Assembly: GCF_032116555.1 (NCBI RefSeq) | Contig: NZ_CP134949.1 | Location: 1,302,001 to 1,366,000, forward strand | Direction of reading: 5' to 3' | DNA length: 64,000 nucleotides | Source: Halorarum halobium | GTDB lineage: Archaea > Halobacteriota > Halobacteria > Halobacteriales > Haloferacaceae | Part shown: in pieces, positions 30,472 to 37,201 of the stretch | Layout: each line of letters opens with the position of its first letter | How positions within the stretch are numbered: position 1 is the first letter of the stretch | The notes under the pieces: model-generated | What the model was told of the DNA's origin: nothing | The model's input: only the letters and a program-made list of their open reading frames with translations | The model's database searches: none | Position numbers and translations under genes: made by a program

Positions 30472-30666
30472 ATGACCGCGCTGTCGTTCGACGAGTCCGG
30501 CGTCGACGTCGTCCACGAGGGGACCGAGTTCCGGCTGGAGAAGGAACTGGTCGAGGACGCGACCGAGAAGTCCTACCTGGACGTGACCGACCACGAGGTG
30601 CTGAAGCTGATCGAGGAGCGGCCCGCGCTCTCGGGGGAACCGCGCCGGATCGGCGACATCCTGTAG
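30472..30666 (+). CDS. Small conserved haloarchaeal protein (DUF5800-like)
   Basis: MTALSFDESGVDVVHEGTEFRL..DVTDHEVLK..GEPRRIGDIL; family name recalled, not searched. Confidence 0.8.
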   Translation: MTALSFDESGVDVVHEGTEFRLEKELVEDATEKSYLDVTDHEVLKLIEERPALSGEPRRIGDIL

Positions 30667-30694
30667 CCGGCCCCGGGCACACTCGTCCGGGGGG

Positions 30695-31501
30695 TCAGGC
30701 GTCGACGGTCGGGAACGTCTCCCGGTGCAGGCGACCCGCGACCTCGTCCGCGAGCGTGCGGAGGTTCACCGTGTCGTCCCGGTTGTACGAGACGAGCGTC
30801 TCCAGGGCCCGGTCGTCGCCCCGCTCGTACTCGTGCCAGAGCCGGACTGCGTCGCGTCCGGTCAGCTCCGGGCCGTCGCGCCCGATGTCGAGTTCGCGCT
30901 CGATCGGCTTGAGCCCGCCAGTCAGGTTCAGCGTTCGGCAGGGGTACATCAGATCCAGATGTGGGGTTTCGACGGTCAGATCGAACGACGACTCCAGGAA
31001 GGGAGCGTCGAACCGTTTGCCGTTGAACGAGACGAGGAGGTCGGCTTTCTCGAACTGTTCACGAACGGCCTCGCCGGTCAGGTCCTCACCGCGCACCAGC
31101 GTCGTCGTCTCGCCGCCGGCGTCGCTCCTCGAGCCCGGTTCGCACGTGCCGAGTTCGGACGTGCCGGGTCGGTGGAAGGTGGCGGTCGTCACCCTGTCGC
31201 GGTGCTGTGAGAGCCCGGTCGTCTCGATGTCGAAAAAGCAGGCGGTCCCCCGGAAGTTCTCGTAGAGTCGCCACCGTTCCGCGCTCGGAAACGCGTCTTC
31301 GAAGAACGCGGAGTCGCCGTCGTCGAGCCGTTCCCGCGCCTCGTCGATGAACGACTCGATGCGGCCGGCCGTCGTGGCTCCGACCCCCCGGATGGTTCCG
31401 CCCGAGAACAGGTCCCACTCGGTTACGCCACTCTCCCACAGTCGGCGCTCGGTCGCCTCGCCGACCCCCTCGACCGGAATGAAGCTGTTCTCGATTCGCA
31501 T
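30695..31501 (-). CDS. YprB/RNase H-like exonuclease domain protein
   Basis: FFDIETTGL, SFNGKRFDAP, GGLKPIE, YNRDD (DEDD-like). Confidence 0.88.
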   Translation of the reverse strand: MRIENSFIPVEGVGEATERRLWESGVTEWDLFSGGTIRGVGATTAGRIESFIDEARERLDDGDSAFFEDAFPSAERWRLYENFRGTACFFDIETTGLSQHRDRVTTATFHRPGTSELGTCEPGSRSDAGGETTTLVRGEDLTGEAVREQFEKADLLVSFNGKRFDAPFLESSFDLTVETPHLDLMYPCRTLNLTGGLKPIERELDIGRDGPELTGRDAVRLWHEYERGDDRALETLVSYNRDDTVNLRTLADEVAGRLHRETFPTVDA

Positions 31502-31642
31502 CAGGTACTCCTGCGCACGCGGGGCGCGTCGGTGGTAGTCACTCGTCCGCTCTGGCTGGTAAACGTTCGGGACCCGAACCGCCCGCTGCCGACCGCGGTG
31601 CGCGGAATCGTTAACCCCGTTCCCACCCGACTATCACCCGTC

Positions 31643-32338
31643 ATGTGTGGCCGATTCTCGCTGTATCTGCCGCCGGCGGCTCTCGAATCCAGGTTCGAGG
31701 CGGAGCCCCCGGCGGACCTGCAGCCGCGGTACAACTGTGCGCCAGGCCAGTCGCTTCCGGTGCTCGCCGCCGACGACACCGGCCGGATGCGCCGGATGAA
31801 GTGGGGGTTCACCCCCTCGTGGGCCGACGAATCGTTCGACCTCATCAACGCGCGGGTCGAGACGGTCCGCGAGAAACGGAGTTTCACGGACGCCTACGAG
31901 TCACGCCGGTGTCTCGTTCCCGCCGACGGGTTCTACGAGTGGACACGGCGTGATGGCGGGAAATGGCCGTACCGGGTGTCGTTCGCGGACGACAGGCCGT
32001 TCGCGATGGCGGGTCTCTACGAGACGTGGACGCCGCCGACTCGCCAGGCGGGCATCGGCGAGTTCGGACGCGACGAACCCACGGGCGAGGAGCGGGTCGA
32101 AGCGTTCACCGTTCTGACGACCGAGCCGAACGACCTCGTCTCCGAACTGCACGACCGGATGGCGGTCGTCCTTCGCCCGGAACACGAGCGAGCCTGGCTG
32201 GATGGATTCCTCGATCACGAAACGCTGGCGACCCCGATCTCCGACGACGAGTTCCGGGCGTATCCGGTTTCGACCCGGGTGAACTCGCCCGCGAACGACG
32301 ACCCGTCGCTGGTCGAACCGGTCGAACTCGGTTCCTGA
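31643..32338 (+). CDS. SOS response-associated peptidase (SRAP/HMCES/YedK family)
   Basis: N-terminal MCGRF, RYNCAP, INARVET, RCLVPADGFYEW, HDRM, VSTRVN. Confidence 0.95.
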   Translation: MCGRFSLYLPPAALESRFEAEPPADLQPRYNCAPGQSLPVLAADDTGRMRRMKWGFTPSWADESFDLINARVETVREKRSFTDAYESRRCLVPADGFYEWTRRDGGKWPYRVSFADDRPFAMAGLYETWTPPTRQAGIGEFGRDEPTGEERVEAFTVLTTEPNDLVSELHDRMAVVLRPEHERAWLDGFLDHETLATPISDDEFRAYPVSTRVNSPANDDPSLVEPVELGS

Positions 32339-32380
32339 AGCGATTTTCGGCGGATTCGGCTGCACGGGCGGCCGCGCCTG

Positions 32381-32480
32381 TATAGCGACATTTGCTATAG
32401 CTGAATAGGGTTTATATGACTGTGAGGGGGCGCCCTCTGGATTATCTGAATTACGAAACAAAGTAGTATACTTGGGGTGA
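32381..32480. promoter_or_regulatory. AT-rich pocket with palindromes and a TATA-like element
   Basis: TATAGC-N7-GCTATA (32381-32399), TTTATA (32411), GAGGG-GGCG-CCCTC and TTATCTGAA (32442-32450) in otherwise GC-rich DNA. Confidence 0.5.
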
Positions 32481-33563
32481 TTTCATCCGACTCGGCCGTC
32501 GACGACCCCGGGCCGCGGGGAGAACGCAGGGTTTCGGACGTTCTTCGGAGGGGACCGATCGAGCGGACATGCCGGTGGAAGCTCCTCGTCGGTGACTCCG
32601 TCGTCCTCGGCTGGATACTGGCCGTTTCGGATCCCGAATCCCGGTTCGAGAACGCGACGACGTCGAGACGAGCGATCAGGTCCTTACCGAACCTTCTCGA
32701 ACGCGTGTGCGGTCCTGCACTCGTTTTCGCCACGATTTGCGTCCCCTCAAACTGATGCTCTCTCGCGGGCGTGATACGGGAAATCGCGCCGGCCTCTGGA
32801 GCGAAACCTGGCCTGGGAACGCTTCCGAGGGGGACGGCTCTCGACCCGTCTGGAGGGGCTGACGGCCCGTTTCGCGAGGCAAGTTAGTTCGGAACGGTCG
32901 GGGAGGTTCCATCTGTGGACGTCCTCAGAGGCACAATTTCGTCCCACCGTCCTCCGACGACCGGAAGTGGGCTCGCTGACCGTCACAACGGTCAGGTTTC
33001 CGCTTCCGTCGGAGCTCACGAGGAATCGGCCCGCTCTGGTTCAGTGCCGTCAGAGCGACCCTGGGCACGTGCGGCTGTGCTCCAGGGGCGTCGTGACACT
33101 CCGGGGTAGTTCGCGTGCGAGCCGTCCCGTCGATAGGGATTGCCCGCTCTCCTCCCGCTTAGCGTTACTCCGATTCGGCACCACCAGCGGTGTCCTCGCC
33201 CTGAAAGCCCTCCCGAGGCGACGATGCACCGGTTCGCAACCCGGAGTCGAGCGCGTTCGACTGGGTGTGCAATCCGGGGGCGGCGATCCTCCGGCTACCG
33301 GATCAGCGTCCTGCTGCGGGGAGGTACGACCGCGCGCGGATCGTTCAGCCGGTAGCCGATCCGGAGGGTCGGTCTTCGAACCGGCCGTGGAAGGGTCTCG
33401 ACGTTTCAACCGGGGCCGATCGAAGTCAGCGTCGGGACCGGGCAGGCACTCGGCTGGCTTGCTTCTCCGTCGGGATCGCACGATCCCGTGCCGTCCTGCT
33501 TTCGCGGTCCGCCTGACTGACCGATTACCGCTGAGGAACGCAGATATCTGTCGGCCAGTCCGT
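32480..33563. ncRNA. Candidate long structured non-coding region downstream of the recombinase
   Basis: No credible ORF; many nested hairpins (32952-33014, 33032-33057, 33059-33087, 33285-33370, 33471-33488). Transcription is not shown. Confidence 0.3.
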
Positions 33564-34622
33564 TCACAGGAGCGAGTAGATGTGGCGTTCGTACGTTTCG
33601 CGGACGTTGTCGCCCCAGTTGTGGGTGTACGTGTCGATGATGTCCTCGGCGACGTCCCCGCGGAGGTACTTCACGATCCCGCGTTCGCCGGTCCGGTCGC
33701 GGAGGTGCGTCGTGAAGAAGTGGCGGAAGTAGTGGGGCGTGACGTTCTGTGTCGCCCCGGCACCCGATTCGTACCAGCCCATCTCGGTCGCGTGTTCCCT
33801 GACGATCCGCTGAACCTGCTCGGGTGTGAGTCGTTCGCCCCAGCCGCGGGCCGTCCCGAGGAACAGCGGCTCCGCGTCCGAAACCGGGTCCGGACGGATC
33901 GCGAGCCAGCGGCACAGCGTCCGTTCGAGTTCCTCGTCGACGGGTACGACGGTCCCACGCTTTCGTTTGTTCGAGGCGCCCCGCATCTCGCCGTTGTACT
34001 CGGTCCCGACGCTCGGTTCGGCGGCGACGTACAGCGATTCCGGGCGGCCATCGAGCTGGGCTCGATCCCCGAGGCGGAGTTCGCCCGTCTCGACCGACAG
34101 CGAGAGGTCACGGAGGTCCAGGTTGCACAGTTCACCGACGCGCATCCCCGTCTTCAGGAGCGTCACGATCAGCGCCCGTTCCAGCGGGTGGCCGACGGAG
34201 GCGACGAACCGCCGCATTCGGGGGACGGAGATCTCCCGGCGGGCGGGGTCGGTCTCGATTCGCTCGTCGAGTTCCTCCATGACCAGCGCCATCGGGTTCG
34301 CGTCGAAGGCGCCCACCTGGGTCATGTAGGCGTAGAACCGGTGGAGGTACGCGGCGTAGGTGGCGACCGACGAGTCGGCGAGGTCGGGGTCACGACGCAG
34401 TTCGTGGACGAACGACATACAGTCCCGGTGTGATGCGTCTCCGGGCTCGACGGTCCCGGAACTGCCGGGTCCGCCGTCCGCGAGGAAGGACTCGAACCGA
34501 CGGAGCACCCGACCGTACTCCTCTCGGGTCTGGTCGCTCTTGCCGTGTAGCTCCATGTCCTGAACGAAGTAGCCGATCGGGTCGGCCGGATCGTCGGCGT
34601 TCCGACTGTCGGTGCTACTCAT
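33564..34622 (-). CDS. Xer-family tyrosine recombinase (XerA/XerC-like)
   Basis: N-terminal SAM-like domain; KTGMRVGEL (R), NKRK (K), PHYFRH (HxxR), LRGD and DTYTH (Y). Confidence 0.93.
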   Translation of the reverse strand: MSSTDSRNADDPADPIGYFVQDMELHGKSDQTREEYGRVLRRFESFLADGGPGSSGTVEPGDASHRDCMSFVHELRRDPDLADSSVATYAAYLHRFYAYMTQVGAFDANPMALVMEELDERIETDPARREISVPRMRRFVASVGHPLERALIVTLLKTGMRVGELCNLDLRDLSLSVETGELRLGDRAQLDGRPESLYVAAEPSVGTEYNGEMRGASNKRKRGTVVPVDEELERTLCRWLAIRPDPVSDAEPLFLGTARGWGERLTPEQVQRIVREHATEMGWYESGAGATQNVTPHYFRHFFTTHLRDRTGERGIVKYLRGDVAEDIIDTYTHNWGDNVRETYERHIYSLL

Positions 34623-35022
34623 CGGTCAACACGTACCCTCCGTCGCGCCCGCTGAACCGGACGCGACCGGACTGTTGCAGATCGCCCATCGTCTCGTCGA
34701 GCCGTTCCTCGACGTCGCCGACGACCGAGTCGAGGAGGTCGTCCCACGTCACCGCCCCCTCGCCACGAAGAGTGTCGAGGACACGGTCTTCGAGGCCTTC
34801 ACCCCCGGGGTCGGCGGGGTCAGAACGGGGTTCCGTTTCGCCGGACGAATCCGGGGTCGATTTCAGATCCAGGCCGAGTTCGCTGCGGCCCGCCTGGACC
34901 ATCGTTCGGACGAACTCGGTCTGGGACATGTCGAGCCGCTCCGCGTCCTCGACCCATTCGGCCTTCTGGTAGCGCGGGAGGTTCACCCTGACTTCGGTCC
35001 GTTCCGTGTCGAGTTCGCTCAC
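34615..35022 (-). CDS. DUF5805-like DNA-binding protein (N-terminal RHH-like, C-terminal wHTH-like)
   Basis: GTG start; VRVNLPRYQKAEWVEDAERLDMSQTEFVRTMVQAGR; overlaps the recombinase start by 8 nt. Confidence 0.8.
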   Translation of the reverse strand: MSELDTERTEVRVNLPRYQKAEWVEDAERLDMSQTEFVRTMVQAGRSELGLDLKSTPDSSGETEPRSDPADPGGEGLEDRVLDTLRGEGAVTWDDLLDSVVGDVEERLDETMGDLQQSGRVRFSGRDGGYVLTDE

Positions 35023-35044
35023 GCACCCACGATACGGCGGGGTC

Positions 35045-35200
35045 CTTATCAATTCCACTGTTTCCCGTCTAAACTTACTAAGACCACGAACAGCGTGCAA
35101 AATCGGCGTAATATAGGCTTAGTAACTTGCCTTACATAAGAAGAAGACACGATATCCTGTCTTTCAATATACTCTACAGTTCCACAGGAACTTGCCTTAC
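35045..35200. promoter_or_regulatory. AT-rich control region with direct and inverted repeats upstream of the DUF5805-recombinase operon
   Basis: AACTTGCCTTAC twice (35124, 35189); palindrome AAGACA-CGATATCC-TGTCTT (35144-35163); TTACTAAG/CTTAGTAA inverted pair. Confidence 0.6.
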
Positions 35201-36045
35201 GAACTGCTTCGCGATTCGCCGCGCTCGTGTCGTCCCACTCGGTTACCTGTTCGAAGCGGACCACCGAACGGAACTGGTGTGGGTGATCGTTACTCGTCGT
35301 CGAGCGGGGAGGCAGCTCGTCGACGCACCGTCGAGAACGCCTCCCGACTGGTCGTGGGCGCGATCTCCACGACGAGTTACGAGTTCGCCGAACAATCCCG
35401 CCGACGGGGTTCCGGGATACTTCGCCGCCGGCGGCTCGGTCGATCCTCCGTCGGGGTCGATTCGGGATGGCGACCGGCTCCCGTCGAACGCCGAGCGTCG
35501 CCACCGCCCGTGGCGTGTGCTCCGTTTGCGGTCGCCCTCCCGTGGTTTTGACTCCGAGCGACCTCTAGGCAGGCTCGGCCGAACTCCCCGTGCCAGTTTC
35601 TCTGCGAGGAGAGGAATCCCGCTCTACTCAACTGCGGGTGAGGCTGGCGGCTGCGGTTTCCGGCCGTTCGCTGAAGCGGGGTGTCGTTACGGATTCGACG
35701 GACGTCCCCGAAACACTGGCTCCCACTGCCTCCGCCCGAGACCCGCAGACGGAACGGGGAAACGGAGACCGACTTCGTCGCCCGTCGGTGAGGCTCCGAG
35801 TGAGTCGGTACGGAGCTCGCAGCCGGTTTCGGCCGGTCCCGAAACAGCCTCCGTGGAGTGGCGCCGTCGATCCCGAAGGCGAGCCCGCGGAGGAACTGTC
35901 CATCCCCGGGTTATCGAAACGGAGTTCGGCGCGTGATCTCTCGACGCCCTCGATCACTGCTAGTCGATCCGACCTCGCTCCGATTCGCGCTCTCTGCTTG
36001 TGGTTTCCATGGTTCTATCGAACACGTGAGAACCGATGGACTGCG
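35200..36045. ncRNA. Candidate long structured non-coding region upstream of the recombinase operon
   Basis: No credible ORF; nested stems 35292-35377 and long-range pairs 35578-35587/35921-35930 and 35632-35639/35741-35748. Transcription is not shown. Confidence 0.3.
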
Positions 36046-36049
36046 GTAG

Positions 36050-36856
36050 TTATCGCTCGGCGGCCTCGACGAGTTCGCGGACCCGCGGCTCGGAGACCGG
36101 CCCCCGGACGTCTCCGTCCTCCTTGAACGCCGTCCCGACGATGACGCCGTCGGCGACCGAGAGGATTTCCCCGACCGATTCGGTTGTCACCCCGCTCCCG
36201 ACGAACAGCGGCGTCTCCAGGCCGAACTCGTCGTGTGCGGCCCGTGCGGCCTCGAGGTCGGCCCGCTCGACCCCCTGTCCGGTTCCCGACCCCGTGATGA
36301 TCGTCCCGTCCGCGAGGCCACGCTGAACGGCGTCGACGATCGATTCAGCGCCCGCGGACTCCGTTCCCACTGCCGTGGAGTGTTTCACCTCGTGATCAGC
36401 GAGCACCCGCACGTCGGCGTCGATGCGGTCCTGCAGTCGGGCGGTCTCGTGGGCTTTCCCCTGGATGAGCCCCTGGTCGGTCAGTCGTGCCCCGGAGTGA
36501 ACGTTCACCCGAACGAAGGACGCGGCGGCGGCCGCAGCGACCGAAACCGCGGCGTTCGCGTCGTTCCGGAGCACGTTGACGCCGACCGGGACGTCGACGG
36601 CGTCCCGGACCTCGCCGGCCGCACGGGTCATCATTGCGACGACGTGCTTCGGAACGTCGTCGGGGTAGAACGGGGCGTCCCCGAAGTTCTCGAGCATGAC
36701 GGCGTCGACGCCGCCGTCCGATAGCCGCCCCGCGTCGCGGCGAGCGTCCGCGAGCAGTGCTTCGCGGGACCCGGCGTACTGGGGCGCTCCCGGGAGCGGC
36801 GGGAGGTGGACCATGCCGACGACCGGCCGCGCGGTTCCGAACGTGGATTCGAGCAT
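36050..36856 (-). CDS. BtpA/SgcQ family protein
   Basis: VGMVHLPPLPG, ENFGDAPF, GVNVLRND, VKHS, GSGTG, ADGVIVGT. Confidence 0.93.
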   Translation of the reverse strand: MLESTFGTARPVVGMVHLPPLPGAPQYAGSREALLADARRDAGRLSDGGVDAVMLENFGDAPFYPDDVPKHVVAMMTRAAGEVRDAVDVPVGVNVLRNDANAAVSVAAAAAASFVRVNVHSGARLTDQGLIQGKAHETARLQDRIDADVRVLADHEVKHSTAVGTESAGAESIVDAVQRGLADGTIITGSGTGQGVERADLEAARAAHDEFGLETPLFVGSGVTTESVGEILSVADGVIVGTAFKEDGDVRGPVSEPRVRELVEAAER

Positions 36857-37201
36857 GGTGTTCGACTGGTTCTCCGGGGGGTAAAGTCCGCCGCGTTCCC
36901 CCCGCTGTCGCGTCTCCATCCACTGTTTCGTTGCTTCGGAAGCGACGAAACGGTGGCCGCACCGCGACTTATACACTGTATGTGGCTATACCAAGCAAAC
37001 GGCCGAACTGGCAGCGGTCTCGGGCGTGTGCCCCCTCGTTCGATGGGTGTGTCCCCCCGCTCGGCCAGCTCCGGATCACGTCGTCTCCCGGCGTCGAAAC
37101 TACGGCGTCACCTTCGGATCGTGACGGATGGCGGCGCGTCACGTCCGTGGTGGTACTGGACGAGTACCGGCCCGTCCCGACCGACCTCCGGGAATCTCAT
37201 G

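Follow-up and report, generated by a model that had tools for sequence, protein, structure and literature searches.

A core haloarchaeal DUF5805–xerA operon between inward-facing polar motifs: a candidate dif site and a possible directional Smc barrier

In Haloferax volcanii and Halobacterium salinarum, the DNA upstream of the xerA operon has been reported to hold a putative dif site and an Smc-dependent boundary (Yamaura et al., 2025, PMC11840125). The available sections of that report place Smc-dependent boundaries in Haloferax at the xerA operon and near HVO_B0249 on pHV3, and state that boundary 1 of T. kodakarensis requires the DNA surrounding dif, and neither dif itself nor XerA. They also cite directional barriers or unloaders of SMC complexes, namely XerD at XDS and MatP at matS; polarity of binding sites is likewise described for CTCF (PMC9764264). 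FtsK is absent from archaea, and a cell holds about 20 chromosome copies (PMC8371274; PMC11840125, available sections). The locus analyzed here is very probably the same operon as that of Yamaura et al., with which it shares, as far as the accessible text goes, a dif-like TAA-N6-8-TTA upstream and long intergenic DNA around dif. The window is a stretch of 64,000 nucleotides from Halorarum halobium, in which the locus has the following features.

32377-32404: partial copy of site B, overlapping the left site B
32392-32431, plus strand: site B downstream of xerA; core 32392-32419 (28 bp) and a near-invariant C at 32431, pointing to the operon
32432-33563: left spacer, non-coding, unconserved, with no folding excess
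33564-34622, minus strand: gene for a 352-residue tyrosine recombinase resembling XerA, with matches to Pfam PF00589 and to SAM-like domains
34615-35022, minus strand: DUF5805 gene (135 aa; Pfam match)
35046-35053, minus strand: TATA-like box some 28 bp upstream of the operon's start codon, read from sequence
35062-35089: site A1, a palindrome with a 6-bp spacer directly upstream of the TATA box
35115-35142: site A2, a second 11-6-11 candidate with a TAA-N6-TTA core
35143-36049: right spacer, non-coding and unconserved
36050-36835, minus strand: btpA-family gene, a passenger enclosed by the B pair
36955-36994, minus strand: site B upstream of the operon; core 36967-36994 and C at 36955, pointing to the operon

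Gene calls and Pfam bear out the two-gene operon proposed in the initial annotation, with the DUF5805 gene overlapping the recombinase gene on the minus strand. The locus is the core haloarchaeal DUF5805–xerA operon: DUF5805 is encoded in 149 of 151 genomes of the order, and xerA is a chromosomal core gene, usually in single copy (27 of 31 genomes). The TATA-like box, a presumed promoter element, has a conserved position in relatives. The ORF-poor flanks are also real, with gaps of 1,225 bp (32339-33563) and 1,027 bp (35023-36049) on a chromosome where our own gene caller finds 31 gaps of at least 1 kb among 3,258. A search of both for hidden or decayed genes gave no coding-like segment (best score in any of 12 frames 6.5, against 19–75 for neighbouring genes), and tblastx returned low-complexity noise only. 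Each flank begins on its left with an AT-rich pocket, as had been noted (GC 0.54 and 0.46 per 200 bp, compared with about 0.68), the left one because it contains the site B copy at 32392-32431. That no tRNA att site had been seen agrees with the lack of any tRNA or tmRNA in the window. The range first given to the locus (32340-36049) holds the operon and its flanks, but the unit runs on to 36994. Among dereplicated loci, the btpA-family gene lies inside the B pair in six and outside it in one.

The recombinase retains R161, K219, H297, R300 and Y332 as invariant residues, as the earlier reading of R-K-HxxR-Y had it, but the second catalytic histidine (LGH motif) is replaced by D323, here and in 31 of 31 haloarchaeal homologues; five of the six residues of the full set R-K-H-R-H/W-Y are thus kept. 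Its score against the XerA model NF040815 is 109.9 bits, below the cut-off of 220, which is reached by all five of the non-halophile recombinases at B pairs. Among solved structures, its closest relatives are archaeal XerA (chains 4a8e and 5hxy). A viable deletion of HVO_1422 (cited in PMC7776575) was considered as evidence on xerA and dropped, HVO_1422 being a provirus integrase (PMC9436352). DUF5805 has an N-terminal ribbon-helix-helix (RHH) domain, residues 6–58 of the model matching RHH proteins (best Z 6.0, r.m.s.d. 1.6, 44 residues aligned), and the domain after the linker is probably a winged helix, judging by secondary structure and weak Z-alpha matches (E 0.04). DUF5805 is likely to be a co-regulator of the operon; the B/A site architecture is also present in families without it. 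The literature searched held no description of DUF5805 or of site B.

The flanks had been called hairpin-dense and were proposed to be long cis elements or structured RNAs guiding the recombinase. The gaps are indeed among the longest 1% in the genome, and a few windows, such as 32820-33060 and 35443-35562, fold with z below -2. However, folding is no better than in other intergenic DNA: in 120-nt windows the mean z on the two strands is -0.27/-0.37 on the left and -0.37/-0.15 on the right, with 7 of 35 windows on the plus strand and 1 of 35 on the minus strand below -2, whereas 118 windows taken as controls from other intergenic DNA of this genome average -0.83/-0.61 with 21%/15% below -2. 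Nor is flank length conserved, at least 800 bp being present upstream in 16 of 34 loci, downstream in 7 and on both sides in 3; these counts are approximate, as the gene caller mis-called the upstream gap of the query genome itself and an earlier caller failed on low-GC loci. In all six same-genus comparisons the flank sequences stayed within or near the shuffle range, and the best Rfam match in the flanks (E 4.5) was far under the gathering score. The kilobase flanks are unconserved spacer DNA, not structured RNA. RNA guides were accordingly dropped as candidates, and the chance that the flanks encode them, or long cis elements, is very remote. What does hold up is the view that the locus is conserved and dedicated to chromosome resolution, that its cis elements go beyond a single dif, and that a gene for a DNA-binding protein is coupled to it. 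Orthologous flanks are unrelated, which speaks against the initial proposal, but short conserved motifs are present in them, which speaks for it, and they probably hold the target site of the recombinase.

Site B is a polar motif of 28–40 bp, and both query copies, 32392(+) and 36994(-), face inward. The left copy scores 24.9 bits with a PWM trained without the query genome and lies in a 76-bp match to a same-genus locus; the upstream copy, outside the range of the initial annotation, scores 30.5 bits. In 80 metagenome loci outside the training set, 158 of 163 B matches point to the operon, and an inward pair is present in 36 of the 37 with enough flank, compared with 30 of 34 loci in the genomes that formed the training set. 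The best-conserved copy lies antisense at a median of 88 bp past the xerA stop, the upstream copy at a median of 1.6 kb. A C at +35 marks 138 of 142 xerA-flanking copies; non-halophiles lack it, as do most of the other copies in the query genome. That genome holds about 16 copies (16 matches above 16 bits, where column-permuted matrices give 0.55 above 14 bits), and the 13 matches on its chromosome are in mixed orientation. The bracketing of xerA by B extends to six non-halophilic families; pairs on pHV3 and around a two-gene unit enclose no recombinase. We found no recombinase homologue within 3 kb of B on 22 viral contigs, and there is therefore no sign of phage use of B.

Site A, which lies no more than 120 bp from the start of the operon, is a likely candidate for dif. 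A1 is the positional counterpart of a conserved dif-like site whose core, T.A-N6-T.A, is found in 57 of 70 dereplicated loci. It has the top site-A score within 32300-37100, yet only 9.4 bits, and 30 sites in the genome score higher. A2, 53 bp from A1, showed no conservation in the relatives compared; a 9-mer within it recurs at 35189(+) and 32877(-), so that three of the genome's six copies lie here, a count made post hoc. Distinct from B, an 11-6-11 palindrome of the A type precedes xerA in these 57 of 70 haloarchaeal loci; it does so in 9 of 12 non-halophile loci that bear B, and in 4 of 8 from f22, a family without B. Its arms vary between lineages, and B is common to them. With origins placed by orc1 hits only, xerA lies 175–180° from orc1 in all four closed f22 genomes, 98–170° away in six B-bearing genomes and 131° from orc1 plus ORB in the query genome, where GC skew located no terminus.

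The distribution of B across the genomes compared tracks DUF5806 and not XerA, a link that rests on two clades whose members, as kin, are not independent. DUF5806 is 65% identical between two B-bearing groups and 41% identical to its f22 counterpart, whereas XerA, found in B-less families by search with a family model, is 27% identical between the same two groups and 34.5% identical to that of f22. All 24 genomes whose helix type is QAVNQAR contain B; of the 19 with a different helix type, 5 contain it, always unpaired. Each of the 18 non-halophile loci of the QAVNQAR type has a B-like site directly ahead of its DUF5806 gene. Unseeded motif discovery within 3.5 kb of xerA in f22 gave no variant convergent motif, although the positive control recovered B. 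The fold of DUF5806 had no Foldseek match at E 0.001 and the protein no solved relative by sequence; a helix-turn-helix match was weak (Z 5.4–5.8, under the bar of the tool), the Atlas returned DUF5806 clusters only, and the literature searched offered a table row with no description. Smc is encoded in the query genome and in every B-bearing family.

Our preferred reading, to which we give a probability of roughly 45%, takes A as dif and B as a directional barrier bound by DUF5806; it is built on the observed sites, their polarity, conservation and co-distribution, and predicts every binding and function from sequence. The locus would be the chromosomal Xer/dif landmark of haloarchaea. XerA would bind the 6-bp-spacer palindrome at its own promoter, resolving chromosome dimers and repressing its operon, with the RHH protein DUF5805 probably assisting it, in a setting where the flanks are spacer without constraint. 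The inward B pair would offer polar binding sites not to XerA but to another conserved host protein, with DUF5806 as the likeliest candidate, and sites so occupied may halt loop-extruding Smc, or unload it, whichever side it comes from. Such a stop could produce the Hi-C boundary reported at the operon and help dif sites of the same molecule to pair in a polyploid cell; the remaining chromosomal and plasmid B copies would be further boundaries. Consistent with this, the sole B pair on pHV3 lies 2.6 kb from a sequence given beside the pHV3 boundary in the available sections of PMC11840125 (about 2% by chance), although it does not enclose the dif candidates named there, and the Hi-C link comprises two loci (operon and pHV3), both of Haloferax. 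Counting against the reading are the weak score and two candidates for A, D323, the displacement of xerA from 180°, the presence of DUF5806 and Smc with B absent in f22 and f15, and single B copies that adjoin plasmid recombinases of another family. The stronger proposal that DUF5806 is CTCF-like (a single-copy protein of haloarchaea and non-halophilic kin that would bind a polar, roughly 28-bp motif, present as inward pairs around dif and as additional copies on every replicon, and would act there as a sequence-specific, directional barrier to Smc) is tentative and rather doubtful.

Alternatively, B could be the target of XerA itself, an unusual dif whose centre spans about 11 bp, leaving A as operator only; each copy would recombine only with its sister copy, and plasmids would carry their own. 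The B arms are pseudo-palindromic around an 11-bp centre and resemble the T. kodakarensis dif arms given in the available sections of PMC11840125; difSL, the site of the 356-residue XerS, also has an 11-bp centre (PMC5357621). B adjoins three recombinase families, and the centres of the 16 query copies are all distinct, which would prevent cross-recombination. Paired centres are alike at 5.61 of 9 positions, compared with 5.12 when shuffled (p 0.001, kin not being independent), the module has flipped relative to its outer neighbours, and a further B pair coincides with a break in synteny. B is, however, common to the XerA groups that share 27% identity and absent beside the closer f22 XerA, all three groups have the separate canonical palindrome, and B is strongly polar, with its one-sided C, and occurs in pairs without a nearby recombinase. 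Genes adjoining the locus in relatives lie within 3 kb of other B copies in 1 of 50 cases (2% expected) and within 10 kb in 7 of 50 (6% expected), which also leaves B unsupported as a hot spot joining distant chromosome sites. We regard a B-type dif as possible, though unlikely.

A role of B as operator or promoter element, with DUF5806 regulating xerA and other genes, is improbable: B contains a TATA-like run, precedes the DUF5806 gene in the 18 loci mentioned and lies upstream of several other genes, but its best-conserved copy is antisense behind xerA, the upstream copy is often past another gene, and 4 of the 17 query copies listed are oriented against the adjacent gene. Fork traps of the Tus/Ter and RTP/Ter type have polar sites facing the dif region, and the Tus-Ter lock is a feature of the former. 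DUF5806 as a terminator keeping fork fusion at dif would suit the inward sites, the candidate binder encoded beside one of them, the lone conserved C on the inward side, which recalls that lock, and the tolerance of B-bearing genomes for xerA far from 180°. Forks would, however, be blocked in intervals without orc1, three of five divergent intervals holding no orc1 gene (origins taken as orc1); the C is absent from the copies noted above; and third-position skew, a weak signal, shows no turn at the locus. We consider such a trap highly improbable. Scarcely credible is an invertible switch or mobile, pdif-like cassette that XerA flips or moves between the inverted B sites. The module takes both orientations relative to outer genes (23 and 11 of 34 lineages), with one clean reciprocal swap (L034 and L201), and passenger genes and IS elements vary within the pair, but the tree requires only four, clustered, orientation changes (bootstrap 3–6) against 9.4 for shuffled labels, the two query centres differ at 5 of 11 positions, and the operon is a near-universal core unit.

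The B pair may be mirror-image conserved motifs that tell chromosome-folding motors where to stop. The locus bears on what directs XerA to resolve polyploid chromosomes instead of joining them, and on what sets the Smc-dependent boundaries of Haloferax, for which it supplies exact sites, a candidate protein and a copy map; the predictions can be tested in a genetic model organism, in part against published Hi-C data. Should B instead prove to be dif, it would be the first defined haloarchaeal XerA recombination site, with unusual geometry. The initial RNA idea can be set aside.

Among described systems, the query resembles archaeal XerA/dif (Pyrococcus, Thermococcus, Thermoplasma and Sulfolobus; PMC2958812, PMC8371274) in its single chromosomal Xer, the 11-6-11 geometry of its candidate sites and the archaeal XerA chains that are its best solved relatives. 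It differs in falling under the NF040815 cut-off, in having Asp for the second His and a dif candidate adjoining the gene, and in its coupled RHH gene and flanking polar sites. The boundary model of PMC11840125 invokes TrmBL2 and AT-rich DNA, and its available text is without the polar motif pair, DUF5805 or DUF5806. With XerS/difSL and XerH/difH (PMC5357621) the query shares a recombinase of about 355 residues and a site beside the gene, the 11-bp centre of difSL equalling the B spacing by symmetry only; unlike those one-site, FtsK-dependent systems, it has sites of two classes, one inverted pair and numerous additional copies. As in Tus/Ter and RTP/Ter, B is polar, faces the dif region and has a candidate binder encoded beside a site, whereas the layout of B copies misfits the origins of the query genome; no Ter or Tus is known in archaea (PMC7776575). 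The pdif (xrs) modules of Acinetobacter plasmids (PMC11705084) likewise have inverted sites with unlike centres and variable enclosed genes, but they are dif-like XerC/D sites around accessory genes, whereas the query encloses a core recombinase operon. Like the sites of CTCF, XerD/XDS and MatP/matS, B is a specific, multi-copy, polar motif associated with the dif region; there is no homology to these systems, and B is unlike A, in contrast to XDS, which resemble dif.

The tyrosine recombinase and DUF5805 genes of Halorarum halobium (genome of 3.68 Mb in three contigs: chromosome C1, with the window at 1302001–1366000, and plasmids C2 and C3) form a two-gene operon between SRAP and btpA genes. 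It carries two candidates for a palindromic site (site A, the proposed dif) and is bracketed by an inward-pointing pair of a polar motif (site B). The features, in their order along the window, are as follows.

31643–32338, plus strand, SRAP gene
32392–32419, plus strand, site B, left copy (B matrix), pointing at the operon
33564–34622, minus strand, tyrosine recombinase gene
34615–35022, minus strand, DUF5805 gene
35062–35089, site A1, a weak variant of 9.4 bits
35115–35142, site A2, second candidate, TAA-N6-TTA
36050–36835, minus strand, btpA gene
36967–36994, minus strand, site B, right copy (B matrix), pointing at the operon

As the initial annotation described, the operon has gene-free flanks of 1,225 bp (SRAP side) and 1,027 bp (btpA side) with AT-rich pockets. 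There is no tRNA gene in the window. Both gaps are non-coding by the codon model (top segment over 12 frames 6.5; neighbouring genes 19–75), and only 31 of 3,258 chromosomal gaps reach at least 1 kb. The flanks are not hairpin-dense, as had been claimed: the mean folding z is −0.15 to −0.37 with 8 of 70 strand-windows below −2, compared with −0.83/−0.61 and 21%/15% in 118 windows of control intergenic DNA, and an Rfam search of the flanks gave no match approaching the gathering score. Against 34 related loci they align only in a 41 bp promoter piece and a 76 bp piece at the left pocket; with the alignable ends removed, the scores of all six same-genus flank comparisons fall inside or close to the range given by shuffled sequence. 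Gap lengths among relatives vary from less than 100 bp to 3 kb (approximate medians 606 upstream and 326 downstream). Neither length nor bulk sequence is conserved among these loci, and the structured-flank idea fails. A 9-mer with six genome copies occurs three times in the window, twice in the right pocket [35124(+) and 35189(+)] and once, inverted, in the left flank [32877(−)]; it was not seen to be conserved. The genes for SRAP, an RNase H-like protein and DUF5800 (30472–32338) make up a block that many relatives keep beside the module bracketed by B, on one side or the other.

The recombinase is present in 27 of the 31 genomes searched, and the closest named matches of the window protein are from Haloferacaceae. 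Arg161, Lys219, His297, Arg300 and Tyr332 are invariant across 31 homologues, in agreement with the catalytic set reported as intact, but the histidine of the LGH motif is an aspartate (Asp323) in all 31. This substitution could mean either that the enzyme is an atypical catalyst or that its role is in part architectural; the protein scores 109.9 against the XerA model, under the cut-off of 220. A PDB chain named 'ribosome-associated translation inhibitor RaiA' (9i5v_14, 401 residues) matches the Xer profile with an E value of 6e-14. DUF5805 is nearly universal in the order (149 of 151 genomes), but in the 102 other genomes of the phylum sample it has a single match, which is under the cut-off. 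It has a ribbon–helix–helix domain (nearly all top structural matches are of this fold; best Z 6.0, r.m.s.d. 1.6 over 44 residues) linked to a second domain that is probably a winged helix. In some genomes two DUF5805 matches lie less than 1 kb apart (G235 C7:154114–155088, G238 C1:3889700–3890521 and G266 C1:2261339–2262129).

Comparison of relatives gave the site B consensus TNNRTATAGCRNHATRNRRTTTAYNNG. A matrix trained on 33 loci, with H. halobium left out, finds the two copies listed above. The H. halobium genome has 17 matches above 12 bits, 16 of them above 16, compared with 0.55 above 14 bits for column-permuted matrices. The pair is found within 4 kb in 30 of 34 genome loci and the downstream copy in all 34 (L060, a duplicate of L031, was not counted). 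Among 80 non-training metagenome loci (the best 80 of 534, some near-identical), upstream matches are on the plus strand in 73 cases and opposite in five, and downstream matches on the minus strand in 85 and opposite in none; of the 37 whose flanks reach 5 kb upstream and 3 kb downstream, 36 have the pair. The median distance between the downstream copy and the stop is 88 bp, and that between the upstream copy and the start 1,623 bp, across 71 dereplicated pairs; of their 142 copies, 138 carry a C at +35, which is on the inward side. A strict pattern matches 19/19 genomes of the order, 18/18 in six other families, presumably methanogens, and 9/84 in the rest; the reversed pattern, used as a control, matches 7/121. 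Both sites are present in 12 of 13 loci fetched from the six families, with the recombinase inside the pair in ten of the 12 and just outside in two; all five of these recombinases that were scored exceed the XerA cut-off. In four of the 12 (L109, L110, L114 and L118) the sites enclose transposase or resolvase genes, and the interval may tolerate insertions. Both H. halobium plasmids begin with parA-type operons that have a B copy close by (C3:1798 and C2:157758). Copies also occur on 22 viral contigs (L067–L088), five of which, of low GC content, have two direct copies ∼400 bp apart. A full-text literature search, confined largely to non-subscription journals, gave no account of B, of DUF5805 or of what DUF5806 does.

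None of the six non-halophile families has DUF5805. Immediately beyond the B pair, 11 of 12 of their loci have a DUF5806 gene, and all 18 non-halophile DUF5806 loci compared carry a B-like site upstream of that gene. The haloarchaeal gene is single-copy and unlinked (C1:523639–524130 in H. halobium; L159:4640–5131). DUF5806 residues 20–85 resemble the helix–turn–helix domains of sigma-4 and WhiA, but with Z scores of only 5.4–5.8. The putative recognition helix QAVNQAR occurs in 24 genomes, all with B; 19 genomes have other helix sequences and five of these have isolated B matches. Between the B-bearing groups DUF5806 is 65% identical, compared with 41% to f22, a family with DUF5806 that lacks B, whereas the corresponding values for XerA are 27% and 34.5% (four proteins per group). 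The distribution of B therefore tracks DUF5806 rather than XerA, in two clades and not in many independent cases. A predicted variant of the motif was searched for within 3.5 kb of xerA in f22 and not found. DUF5806 has a C-terminal CxxCxH motif in several haloarchaea, and is present in family f15 (11 genomes) with no XerA above the cut-off.

That B is XerA's own recombination site may be suggested by its 11 bp centre, as in difSL (accessible text of PMC5357621), by its position beside three recombinase families and by the lack of a shared centre between any two H. halobium copies. One of these families, of plasmid type and undetected by chromosomal XerA at E 0.01, adjoins B on four replicons, including both H. 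halobium plasmids (C2:1820–4273, where a second copy is in pieces, and C3:70944–72304; also L092 and L099); the available part of PMC13532300 states that no known Xer sites were found on haloarchaeal xerA plasmids. We rank this reading second because a canonical palindrome exists apart from B and because B does not follow XerA descent. This palindrome, site A, is located immediately upstream of the operon's TATA-like box, and its complete core T.A-N6-T.A is present in 57 of 70 dereplicated loci; 30 H. halobium sites score above 11 bits by the site A matrix, compared with 9.4 for A1. Palindromes of the same 11-6-11 form, with different arms, occupy this position in nine of 12 non-halophile B-bearing loci and in four of eight f22 loci, and f22 xerA lies 175–180° from the best orc1 gene in all four closed genomes. 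A replication-fork trap formed by the B pair is disfavored because, of the five divergent intervals that separate chromosomal copies, three contain no orc1 gene, and an invertible switch because the orientation of the module relative to the outer genes changes four times in 34 lineages (9.4 in shuffles).

We favor instead a barrier role for B, which would be consistent with two further pairs and with published boundary data. Haloferax volcanii pHV3 (438 kb) has three B-pattern matches (pHV4 four, pHV1 one), two of which form an inward, intergenic pair at 294,448 and 294,862 with no recombinase match in the surrounding 10 kb. The accessible text of PMC11840125 (Yamaura et al.) places a pHV3 boundary near HVO_B0249, and the sequence printed there maps to 297,432, 2.6 kb from the pair; the chance of a pair within 5 kb is about 0.02. 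A second conserved pair, also inward, surrounds a two-gene unit in H. halobium, G116 and G136. The same two small genes, one NifU-like by eye, lie inside it in H. halobium [C1:3291172(+)/3292189(−)] and in L125 and L126, whereas the DNA outside the pair maps to locations far apart. PMC11840125 also describes a putative dif, with an Smc-dependent boundary, upstream of the xerA operon in H. volcanii and Halobacterium salinarum; we infer that this is the same operon as in the window and that its site is A. As reported there, the dif boundary of Thermococcus kodakarensis depends on a roadblock protein and on the intergenic DNA around dif, but needs neither dif nor XerA; in Haloferax, according to the available part of a review (PMC9764264), nine boundaries are lost without Smc. 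The window locus probably corresponds to the xerA/dif boundary already known in part from haloarchaea, to which it adds a polar B pair not described before and DUF5806 as the candidate protein that binds it.
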